DNA from: Parachlamydiales bacterium
GTDB taxonomy: Bacteria; Chlamydiota; Chlamydiia; Chlamydiales; Parachlamydiaceae
NCBI GenBank assembly: GCA_020051075.1
Contig: JAGVJP010000012.1
Location: 9,575 to 73,574, forward strand
Direction of reading: 5' to 3'
Length of the DNA: 64,000 nucleotides
Positions 28,243 through 30,177 of the stretch are shown here, piece by piece (the first letter of the stretch is position 1; the number at the start of each line of letters is the position of its first letter). The notes beneath the pieces were generated by a model. The model had not been told where the DNA came from, did not search any database, and saw only the letters and a program-made list of their open reading frames with translations. The translations under genes and the position numbers were made by a program.

Positions 28243-30177
28243 TTGACCATGAAAGGCTTTCTATGTAACTGTTCCCGAGGGTGTAAGCGCTTCCCAAATG
28301 GGTTTGAATGGCGATTTGCTTCAAAAATCTGCTCATTAATAGAAAAAAACTATGAATTTCGCCGATTTCTTCCCATCTCATCCATTCAAACACCATTTTG
28401 GAAGGCCTGGACCCTCGGGAACGCTTACTTTGTGTTTCTTGTCTTCTTGCTTTCAGCCATCTGTCCTGTTTTCTCAGAGGAGCTAAAGCCTGATCTACAA
28501 GTGATGATTCCAATGCGGGATGGTACAGAGCTGCAAACAGATCTCTATCTCCCTACTCCCGATTCTCGGGGCCTACCTTGCATTTTGCTCAGAAGTCCTT
28601 CCGGTCGAGATGTATCGTGGAAAGGGATCCTTGAGTTGGCGCAGGCAGGTTATGTGATTGCTGTTCAAGAGACGCGGAGTGCTAAAGATTTGGAAGGCAA
28701 AACATTGCCTTTTGTTTCCGATGCATGGGGGAAGCTCCAAGATGGCTATGATGTGGTAGAGTGGCTTGCGAAAAGCCCTTACACTAATGGGAAAATAGGG
28801 ACTTGGGGCCCTTCCGCGTTGGGAATCACACAGCTGTTGCTAGCTCCAACGCAACCGCCCTCTCTCAAGTGCCAATATGTTATTTTTGCTGCTTCCAGCT
28901 TATACCATCACGGGATATTTTCTGGGGGACAGCTCTTAAAAAATCAAGCTGAGGGATGGCTTGGATACTATGCACGCGATACAGGGGTTCTCAGCTACGT
29001 TTGTCAACGTCCCTTCTATAACGATTTTTGGAAACAGCTGAATACCTTAGATGTTGTTGAACATGTTAAAGTCCCCGGTTTCTTCGTCGCAGGATGGTAC
29101 GATACCTTTTTGCAAGGGACATTGGACGCTTTCTATTCTCGTCAATACGAAGGAGGTGAGGGAGCGAAAGGTCATCAAAAGCTTATTATTGGTCCTTGGA
29201 CTCATTTTTGGCCTCGTTCAACTCATTTTGGTGATTTTGAAATCCCAAAAAATGGAGAGATTCCTCCCTTTGACATTTTGCCAAAGCGTTGGTTCGATTA
29301 CTATTTGAAGGGAGTCGACAACGGCATGGAGAAGATTCCTGCTGTGATTTATTATGTGATGGGCCCTTTTGACGGAACTCCATCCAGCGGTAATCGTTGG
29401 AAAACTTCAGATGTATGGCCGGTTCCAGCGACTAGAACTTCCCTTTATTTGTCTTCGGATCACAAATTACATCGTGACCCTTCTTTAGCAGGGCAGTTGT
29501 CATATAAGTATGATCCCCACAACACAATTTCGACAATAGGAGGGCGGAATCTCTTTTTAGAATCCGGCCCGAAAGACCAGCGGAGCATCGAAGGACGAGA
29601 AGATATCCTTGTCTTTACGACTGAACCGCTTTCCGATGAGATGGAGATCACAGGCCCCCTTTCAGCTATCCTTTATTTTAATTCAGATCAAAAAGATACC
29701 GATGTTGTGGTCCGTCTGTGCGACGTTTACCCAGATGGCCGGAGCGTTCTCATCACTGAAGGAGGATATCGCTTAGGAACGCGGTGTTATCTGACAGGAG
29801 AAGCTCGAGAGTTTAAGCCGGGCGTGCCAACGGAAGTCGTCATAGACTTATCAGCGACTAGCCTGGTTTTTGCTAAAGGCCATTCTGTGCGGTTATCCGT
29901 CAGCAGCTCTAATTTCCCTCGCCTAGAGAAAAATCTTAACGTAGGGGTATTGGGGGCGAACTCTGGAGAGTCAAAGGTTGCTAAAAATGTTTTGCATGTG
30001 GGAGAGAAATATCCCTCTCGTCTAATCTTGCCTGTTGTGCCAACTGAGAATTATTCTCCTAAGTGTTGCTGTCCGAGTCCATGTCAATGCCCAAAGCCAT
30101 GCCAGTGCTCGACTTCGTGCCAGTGCCAGAGCCCATGCCAGTGTCCGAAGCCATGCCAGTGCTCAACCTCGAAATAA
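28243..30177 (+). CDS. CocE/NonD-family (S15 X-Pro dipeptidyl-peptidase-like) hydrolase with Cys-rich C-terminal tail
   Basis: IPMRDGTELQTDLYLP, nucleophile region GTWGPSALG, PepX_C-like VVVRLCDVYPDGRSVLITEG and SSSNFPR. Start uncertain: TTG 28243 or ATG 28249 gives an in-frame signal-peptide-like AYFVFLVFLLSAICPVFS, and ATG 28504 gives a cytoplasmic form. Confidence 0.85.
   Translation: MTMKGFLCNCSRGCKRFPNGFEWRFASKICSLIEKNYEFRRFLPISSIQTPFWKAWTLGNAYFVFLVFLLSAICPVFSEELKPDLQVMIPMRDGTELQTDLYLPTPDSRGLPCILLRSPSGRDVSWKGILELAQAGYVIAVQETRSAKDLEGKTLPFVSDAWGKLQDGYDVVEWLAKSPYTNGKIGTWGPSALGITQLLLAPTQPPSLKCQYVIFAASSLYHHGIFSGGQLLKNQAEGWLGYYARDTGVLSYVCQRPFYNDFWKQLNTLDVVEHVKVPGFFVAGWYDTFLQGTLDAFYSRQYEGGEGAKGHQKLIIGPWTHFWPRSTHFGDFEIPKNGEIPPFDILPKRWFDYYLKGVDNGMEKIPAVIYYVMGPFDGTPSSGNRWKTSDVWPVPATRTSLYLSSDHKLHRDPSLAGQLSYKYDPHNTISTIGGRNLFLESGPKDQRSIEGREDILVFTTEPLSDEMEITGPLSAILYFNSDQKDTDVVVRLCDVYPDGRSVLITEGGYRLGTRCYLTGEAREFKPGVPTEVVIDLSATSLVFAKGHSVRLSVSSSNFPRLEKNLNVGVLGANSGESKVAKNVLHVGEKYPSRLILPVVPTENYSPKCCCPSPCQCPKPCQCSTSCQCQSPCQCPKPCQCSTSK

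Follow-up and report, generated by a model that had tools for sequence, protein, structure and literature searches.

What is a short, extremely cysteine-rich peptide doing at the end of an otherwise ordinary serine hydrolase, and is it a genuine part of that protein? The question is raised by a stretch of 64,000 nucleotides (the window; positions 9,575 to 73,574 of contig JAGVJP010000012.1) from the genome of an uncultured Parachlamydiaceae-type chlamydia, in which a gene for a CocE/NonD (peptidase S15) hydrolase ends in 38 codons made up of repeated CxC motifs. We find this tail to be a translated, lineage-specific C-terminal extension of the enzyme, and consider it very probably genuine and under purifying selection. 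As to its role, we tentatively favor a disulfide tether to the cysteine-rich chlamydial envelope, and weigh that reading below against several others.

A repeated CxC tail on a CocE/NonD hydrolase

The gene and the parts of its 3' end are as follows.

28249..30177, forward strand: CocE/NonD (peptidase S15) serine hydrolase gene, from its open reading frame and from domain and structure matches
28519..30024, forward strand: catalytic alpha/beta-hydrolase domain and C-terminal PepX_C domain, from profile matches and the alignment to CocE
30040..30063, forward strand: linker PTENYSPK between the domain end (ILPVV) and the repeats, from alignment; in the ortholog P0002, described below, it reads TVMSSSNKTESGS
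30064..30117, forward strand: tail super-unit 1, CCCPSP-CQCPKP-CQCSTS, three 18-nt CxC-xxx units, from the sequence and Tandem Repeats Finder
30118..30171, forward strand: tail super-unit 2, CQCQSP-CQCPKP-CQCSTS, from comparison with super-unit 1
30172..30177, forward strand: last Lys codon and TAA stop, from the sequence

The open reading frame (ORF) gives a protein of 642 amino acids from the ATG at 28249 (protein record P0001, which begins MKGF) or of 644 from a TTG at 28243, and ends in KCCCPSPCQCPKPCQCSTSCQCQSPCQCPKPCQCSTSK followed by TAA; coordinates and frame are those of the original prediction, a note made from the letters of the window before this analysis. That note's assignment of the enzyme to the CocE/NonD (S15) hydrolases holds up on every comparison made. 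Pfam profiles cover residues 93–239 and 360–594 (644-residue numbering, used below), with Peptidase_S15 at E = 1e-47 (163.5 bits, cutoff 23) and PepX_C at E = 1.6e-47 (162.6 bits, cutoff 22.5), and TIGR00976 scores the protein at 314.4 bits (cutoff 66.3). Among solved structures the best match is cocaine esterase (3i2h, E = 1.6e-66). Residues S191 (in GPSALG, 189–194), D287 (in GWYD, 284–287) and H321 (in GPWTH, 317–321) are invariant across 30 aligned homologs and align to S117, D259 and H287 of 3i2h, which form the Ser-Asp-His catalytic triad of cocaine esterase; by this alignment the hydrolase keeps that triad intact. No metal requirement is known for this enzyme family.

The tail consists of six CxC-xxx hexapeptides of 18 nt each, grouped as two super-units of 18 residues (54 nt), and Tandem Repeats Finder reports periods of 18 and 36. 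Thirteen of its 38 residues (34%) are cysteines (608–610, 614, 616, 620, 622, 626, 628, 632, 634, 638 and 640), rather than the 15 counted originally. The composition is limited to C, P, Q, K, S and T, with no aromatic, histidine, acidic or hydrophobic residue. In an AlphaFold model of the protein (mean predicted local distance difference test score, pLDDT, of 71), residues 603–642 lie below a pLDDT of 50, and the tail is thus predicted to be disordered. Its codon usage is unlike that of the rest of the gene (G+C content at third codon positions, GC3, of 0.62 vs 0.43; TGC for 9 of 13 cysteines and CAG for 5 of 6 glutamines), which in this small sample hints at amplification from a short GC-rich seed. 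Elsewhere in the same genome the tail DNA finds only chance matches of 13–17 nt, so the tail is not a mobile repeat.

Divergence between the repeat copies is synonymous

The two 42-nt copies at 30076–30117 and 30130–30171 both encode SPCQCPKPCQCSTS and differ at 7 of their 42 nucleotides. All seven differences are third-position transitions and all are synonymous, exactly the codon pairs and copy boundaries listed in the original prediction. The probability that all seven would be synonymous is 1.6e-5 under random substitution and 4.6e-4 if only transitions are allowed, and the probability that seven differences would all fall within the 14 third positions of 42 is 1.3e-4 (hypergeometric). Put as rates, the copies show 7 differences on 8.67 synonymous sites, which is saturation, and none on 33.3 non-synonymous sites (14 codons). 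The same seven differences, when read in the other two forward frames, would alter amino acids; because they are silent only in the CQC frame, that frame is the selected one. Over the full 54-nt super-units there are nine synonymous and two non-synonymous codon differences, of which the latter change a residue enclosed by a CxC in one case and a spacer in the other, while the outer cysteines of the CxC motifs stay untouched. As read from these copies, the super-units arose by tandem duplication, and purifying selection has kept the peptide since.

Distribution of the tail among relatives

An ortholog, P0002, encoded on a contig of 7,755 nt and sharing 78% of residues in the search and 81.5% across the aligned core, carries a longer version of the same tail, CCCPSP-CPCPKP-CQCSTS-CKCASP-CQCPKP-CQCSAS-CQCASP-CQCPKP-CQCTSL-PKVDKET, with three super-units. 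Every cysteine column and every PKP spacer of the window tail is kept in it, the cysteine positions being retained in 15 of the 15 hexapeptide units of the two proteins together, while the linker that precedes the repeats is unrelated. This contrast, together with the synonymous-only divergence of the copies, sustains the earlier claim that the peptide and not the DNA is under selection.

A second relative, 92–94% identical, was found in two metagenome runs of one study (X2 and X3). Its contigs continue from the catalytic domain into the tail with no gap (record 19 of X3 to position 30104, record 10 of X2 to 30077) and stop inside it, because repeats break assemblies. Within the tail this relative differs at 30135 (A>C) and 30138 (C>T), both synonymous when the codons are read by eye. 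Further contigs fall on the tail itself (six in X2 and three in X3), with summed depths of 77 and 49 vs approximately 13 for the gene, which may reflect more repeat units or several strains. Since two independent relatives carry the tail, the argument for selection is strengthened.

The same records bear on whether the tail could be an error of assembly or sequencing, with the true stop lying upstream of 30061. The source assembly (G000 below; 2.94 Mb in 133 contigs, with 5.7% contamination) and the error-prone nature of repeats give this idea some initial footing. It is, however, countered by the presence of the same in-frame tail in two independent data sets (P0002, and the gap-free contigs from the two runs of one further study) and by the frame-specific synonymous pattern, which errors cannot yield, and we regard it as effectively refuted.

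A third close homolog, P0003 (83% identical), ends in ILPVVGK directly after the domain, without a tail. A tree of 40 homologs unites P0001, P0002 and P0003, on a long stem, in a clade with 100/100 support whose inner order is unresolved. The simplest history is a single origin of the tail on the stem of this clade, followed by its loss in P0003, if that record, from a contig of 2,037 nt, is complete.

Outside this clade the tail was not encountered. Tail-only searches of 5.8 billion proteins returned the window protein and P0002 only (2 of 5 and 2 of 14 candidates). Among the 120 best homologs of the whole enzyme in that collection, 118 have 0–2 cysteines in their last 50 residues, and a cysteine-rich C-terminus occurs in two, P0001 (the window's own protein) and P0002. 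The earlier statement that no CocE-family member is known with such a tail was thus nearly right, P0002 being the sole exception among those 120. Orthologs in 18 other genera for which the C-terminus was covered end 1–27 residues past ILPVV and have no cysteine there, and a search with the tail found nothing like it in the 72 further family genomes covered (best E = 0.044). The Protochlamydia amoebophila ortholog, P0026, likewise has no such tail. The tail (44 residues) had no match at E ≤ 0.001 among 1.84 billion representative proteins, a set in which close orthologs are collapsed and which is therefore little informative here, and residues 605–644 gave no usable match in the ESM Atlas. In the literature searched, the motif strings of the tail were not found, nor was any work combining 'Parachlamydiaceae' and 'metallothionein'; periplasmic CxC metallothioneins led to general metallothionein work only, and the Protochlamydia proteomics literature did not contain the term 'acyl esterase'.

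These distributions also bear on the idea that the tail is a tolerated low-complexity expansion with no specific function, produced by loss of a stop codon and then tandem duplication of an 18/54-nt unit. Extensions past ILPVV vary across the hydrolase family in length (0–42 residues) and in sequence, copy number differs between the window (two super-units) and P0002 (three), P0003 does without a tail altogether, and the codon usage of the tail departs from that of the rest of the gene, all of which speaks for such an expansion. Set against this are the saturation of synonymous sites with zero amino-acid change over 14 codons, and the retention of cysteines in every hexapeptide next to a linker that has fully diverged; we consider a functionless expansion improbable.

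The amino terminus and the question of export

Two features at the 5' end of the gene bear on where the protein goes.

28429..28476, forward strand: hydrophobic core and cleavage region of a Sec-type signal peptide, FVFLVFLLSAICPVFS, identified by eye against the N-termini of P0002 and P0003
28264..28431, forward strand: repeat element of approximately 168 nt resembling a miniature inverted-repeat transposable element (MITE), from its genome copies and terminal inverted repeats GTAAC...GTTAC

The N-termini of the orthologs, MKGFVFLVFLLTAISPVFS in P0002 (MKGFVFLVFLL) and MKSLVFLVLLLTAISPAFS in P0003 (MKSLVFLVLLL), show when read by eye a short basic start, a hydrophobic stretch and then VFS or AFS. 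Judged from these, the enzyme is probably exported via the Sec pathway. In the window, the hydrophobic core has been displaced approximately 57 residues from the start by insertion of the MITE-like element, which sits in frame and free of stops between the MKGF start and the FVFLVF core. This insertion was missed in the original prediction, and it bears on the export of this copy. The element matches 11 further loci in the genome, nine of them across most of the element at 84–90% identity and two partial. The 92–94% identical relative lacks it: in its X2 and X3 contigs only 13 other letters separate 28246 from 28430, and the reading is MKGLVFLV. Nine of the 11 other copies have one or two stops in the frame of the gene and the copy within the gene has none, a difference that we judged too weak to indicate selection for read-through. 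The element weakens functional statements about this genome but not about the clade.

A sorting signal of the sortase or exosortase type was sought in the tail and not found: there is no hydrophobic stretch and no match to a -CTERM model of NCBIfam. Lacking any hydrophobic segment, the tail is unlikely to direct the protein in the manner of the known C-terminal sorting signals, so far as its sequence tells. A quite different kind of targeting can be imagined, in which the enzyme is secreted from the bacterium and its poly-cysteine tail is S-acylated by the host and anchored to inclusion or host membranes. The CCC start and the density of cysteines do resemble the S-acylated cysteine strings of eukaryotes, and the organism would be of the intracellular symbiont type, judging from the names of its relatives. 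The N-terminus, however, is a classical Sec signal with no type III signal evident, and acylation would not need so regular a CxC periodicity; this kind of targeting seems to us very improbable.

A proposed disulfide tether to the cysteine-rich envelope

Cysteine-dense stretches encoded by the same genome were located by a six-frame scan. Three belong to envelope proteins: an OmcA-like lipoprotein with about 30% cysteine; an OmcB ortholog (Chlam_OMP6 and DUF11; G000:C100:6062-7930, forward strand) with a long N-terminal Cys/Pro repeat of the EPCRPCPPPC type; and a Legionella_OMP-type porin (G000:C31:48274-49326, forward strand) with a CCC-rich N-terminal extension, CGCAPTCCCKPTCCCEPTCC. Equipping envelope proteins with Cys/Pro low-complexity extensions is thus a habit of this organism. 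The scan also found three paralogous small secreted CxC proteins of approximately 76 residues.

G000:C93:88133-88360, forward strand: small secreted CxC protein
G000:C131:11061-11285, reverse strand: small secreted CxC protein
G000:C84:13812-14018, reverse strand: small secreted CxC protein

Each has a signal peptide and about 30% cysteine in CxC motifs, and their C-terminal halves share the CxC-xxx rhythm of the tail. The family is present in 31 of the 72 other genomes of the bacterial family; it corresponds to no Pfam family and to no NCBIfam model above cutoff.

In Protochlamydia, the envelope proteins of elementary bodies are extensively cross-linked by disulfide bridges, according to PMC3561449, and a role of OmcA and OmcB in disulfide cross-linking of the envelope is described in PMC3561449 and PMC2811131. 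Given this documented cross-linking, and an organism that habitually places Cys/Pro extensions on its envelope proteins, we tentatively favor the view that the tail tethers the enzyme to the cysteine-rich envelope through disulfide cross-links. The hydrolase would be exported by the Sec pathway into the periplasm, where an unstructured array of 13 thiols, spaced by proline, lysine and serine, could serve as the tether. Late in the developmental cycle, when the envelope is oxidized, the tail would form intermolecular disulfides with OmcA, OmcB and the cysteine-extended porin, and the hydrolase would in this way be anchored in the infectious stage's outer-membrane complex; reduction at entry would release it. 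The predicted disorder, the restriction to six kinds of residue and a serine hydrolase body with no known need for metal also speak for a tether.

Several observations weigh against it. A strict CxC-x3 periodicity is classically a metal-thiolate motif, and the lysine, serine, threonine and glutamine of the tail are likewise the composition of metal-thiolate proteins. The cysteine patterns of OmcA and OmcB are different (CC, and CxxC or PC), and the tail has no detectable similarity to the OmcB of the same genome (best E = 0.074) and no match to the Chlam_OMP6 or OMP3 profiles. The three small secreted CxC proteins look more like metal binders. In the window itself the MITE-like element splits the signal peptide, making export of this copy uncertain. 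The tail would be dispensable in at least one lineage if the record of P0003, ending in ILPVVGK, is complete, and the comparative power of three tail instances in total is small. Beyond a tail that is real, translated, selected and restricted to one clade, all that we say of it is inference.

Metal binding and redox as alternatives

The main rival to the tether, possible but in our estimate doubtful, makes the tail a periplasmic metallothionein-like module that would hold Cu(I), Zn or Cd in thiolate clusters through its CxC array. It could buffer periplasmic metal in a bacterium that dwells in amoebae, which use Cu and Zn as poisons against their prey, or hold a metal beside the enzyme. A cysteine content of 34%, the lack of aromatic, histidine and acidic residues and the strict CxC-x3 spacing together are of metallothionein type; the predicted disorder would suit an apo-metallothionein; and the small secreted CxC-xxx proteins, with three members here and relatives in the other genomes of the family, add to the case. 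At the level of families the resemblance ends: the tail matches no Pfam family at E up to 1 and no NCBIfam family, no metallothionein family among them, and it is not free-standing. The original description of the tail as 'metallothionein-like' can therefore stand for its composition (about 30% cysteine, CxC motifs, no aromatics) and not for its family. The proline-rich spacers (PKP, SP) are unusual in metallothioneins, free thiolates would be hard to maintain in an oxidizing periplasm, and the enzyme family needs no metal. The neighbors of the hydrolase gene are housekeeping genes rather than metal genes: that for ribosomal protein S20 lies upstream, that for PBP2 downstream, and one for a pseudouridine synthase on the opposite strand.

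A further look-alike came from a degenerate-DNA scan for the motif CQCPKPCQC, which returned 19 metagenome and 7 genome loci (L021-L046; for example L022:2881-3078, forward strand). All 26 encode small lipoproteins of approximately 65 residues from Sulfurimonas-type Campylobacterota, in which the motif lies within CNNPKCQCPKPCQCGAGCRCGMNGNS, and they apparently make up a conserved, undescribed family. That this motif recurs there lends metal binding some support, as does the weak resemblance of one of the lipoproteins to the plant PEC metallothionein family, which stays below threshold (E = 0.022, 15.5 bits, cutoff 31.8). Borrowing a function from the neighbors of these lipoproteins was tried and given up: a Pfam scan of 23 ORFs at 10 of the 26 loci, which include transketolase, nitroreductase, HIT, PPK2 and Omp85, revealed no metal-resistance theme, and the lack of metal-resistance genes there counts against a metal binder.

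Taken further, this reading would join the tail with the small secreted CxC proteins found across the family into an unrecognized periplasmic metallothionein system of environmental chlamydiae, an idea that we hold to be rather unlikely. The arrays would then mop up Cu or Zn delivered by the amoeba, and the tail would be a copy of that function, evolved de novo and fused to the enzyme through stop-codon loss and tandem duplication.

A third possibility, which we think improbable, makes the tail a redox element. CxC disulfides are strained and strongly oxidizing, and could form a thiol-disulfide buffer, or a switch for the hydrolase between the reduced replicative and the oxidized infectious stage. 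The tail is joined to the C-terminal domain by a flexible, non-conserved linker, and this would favor such a role. So would the shift in the redox state of the chlamydial envelope with developmental stage, as given in PMC3561449. There is, however, no sign that the tail can reach the active site, and P0003, like every other member of the family, manages without it.

Genomic setting

The order S20, CocE/NonD hydrolase, PBP2 (27949-33675) seems to be conserved, and in one relative (locus L002) a PBP2-like N-terminus follows directly after the hydrolase. Named relatives among the hydrolase homologs are Protochlamydia, Parachlamydia and 'Parachlamydiaceae bacterium'. In the sequencing runs compared with it, none of them listed as RNA, the shares of matching words were at most 0.26, and no habitat is read from them. 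One further feature lies next to the gene.

30200..30390, no strand assigned: long imperfect palindrome in the gap that separates the hydrolase stop from the PBP2 start, from its fold, BLAST matches and contig depth

The palindrome is built of words resembling CAGGATAA and has a minimum free energy of -124.9 kcal/mol (z = -14.9). It finds 521 BLAST pieces across the same genome, making it a member of an abundant intergenic palindromic repeat family, and its summed contig depth in X2 and X3 is 200–545 vs approximately 13 over the body of the hydrolase gene. It may act as a terminator; it is context and not a component of the tail. An element resembling it also stands 3' of the hydrolase ortholog in locus L004.

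Implications and comparison with known systems

Should the tail prove a disulfide tether, growth of a short cysteine repeat would have sufficed to draw an ordinary soluble enzyme of the periplasm into the cross-linked envelope of the infectious stage, which would amount to a cheap and evolvable way of packaging proteins in environmental chlamydiae. Should it prove to bind metal, bacteria would have in it a rare example of an exported metallothionein-like module, and the small secreted CxC proteins, found in 31 of the 72 other genomes, would be candidates for a metal defense in amoebae. The tail thus hints at envelope packaging or metal handling in these organisms. On either reading it is a small and clear example of how tandem duplication makes a new functional peptide, with selection legible from synonymous divergence and a reach limited to three instances in one narrow clade of uncultured organisms.

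Compared with what is known, the tail is best described from its sequence as a variation on cysteine-rich modules of known kinds, and homologs of it were not found outside one small clade. The enzyme body is familiar: CocE and the alpha-amino-acid ester hydrolases share with the window hydrolase the S15 and PepX_C domains and the aligned Ser-Asp-His residues. The solved CocE relatives end at ILPVV, and none of the 19 matched sequences from the Protein Data Bank aligns past query residue 600. OmcA and OmcB resemble the tail in being extracytoplasmic, very cysteine-rich, proline-containing low-complexity repeats in chlamydia; they differ in their CC and CxxC/PC patterns, whereas the tail has a strict CxC-x3 pattern and no lipobox and stands at the C-terminus of a soluble enzyme.

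Metallothioneins (SmtA and BmtA, and the CxC Cu/Cd types of fungi and ciliates) have, like the tail, about one-third cysteine, CxC motifs and no aromatic or histidine residues, and they also share with it evolution by modular tandem repeats and, as predicted for the tail, disorder in the absence of metal. They are, however, free-standing, small and cytosolic, whereas the tail is a 38-residue appendix of an enzyme of approximately 600 residues, presumed to be periplasmic and with proline-rich spacers. The Sulfurimonas-type lipoproteins share the 9-mer CQCPKPCQC letter for letter and, having a signal peptide and a lipobox, are extracytoplasmic as well, but they carry a single motif in approximately 65 residues between unrelated flanks (CNNPK before it and GAGCRCGMNGNS after it) and belong to another phylum. 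Because the flanks are unrelated and the phylum is different, this resemblance is most likely convergent. Repeats of the Pro-Lys-Pro-Cys type also occur in keratin-associated proteins and in the sperm mitochondrial cysteine-rich protein; the analogy to these is one of composition only, and they work by intermolecular disulfide cross-linking.

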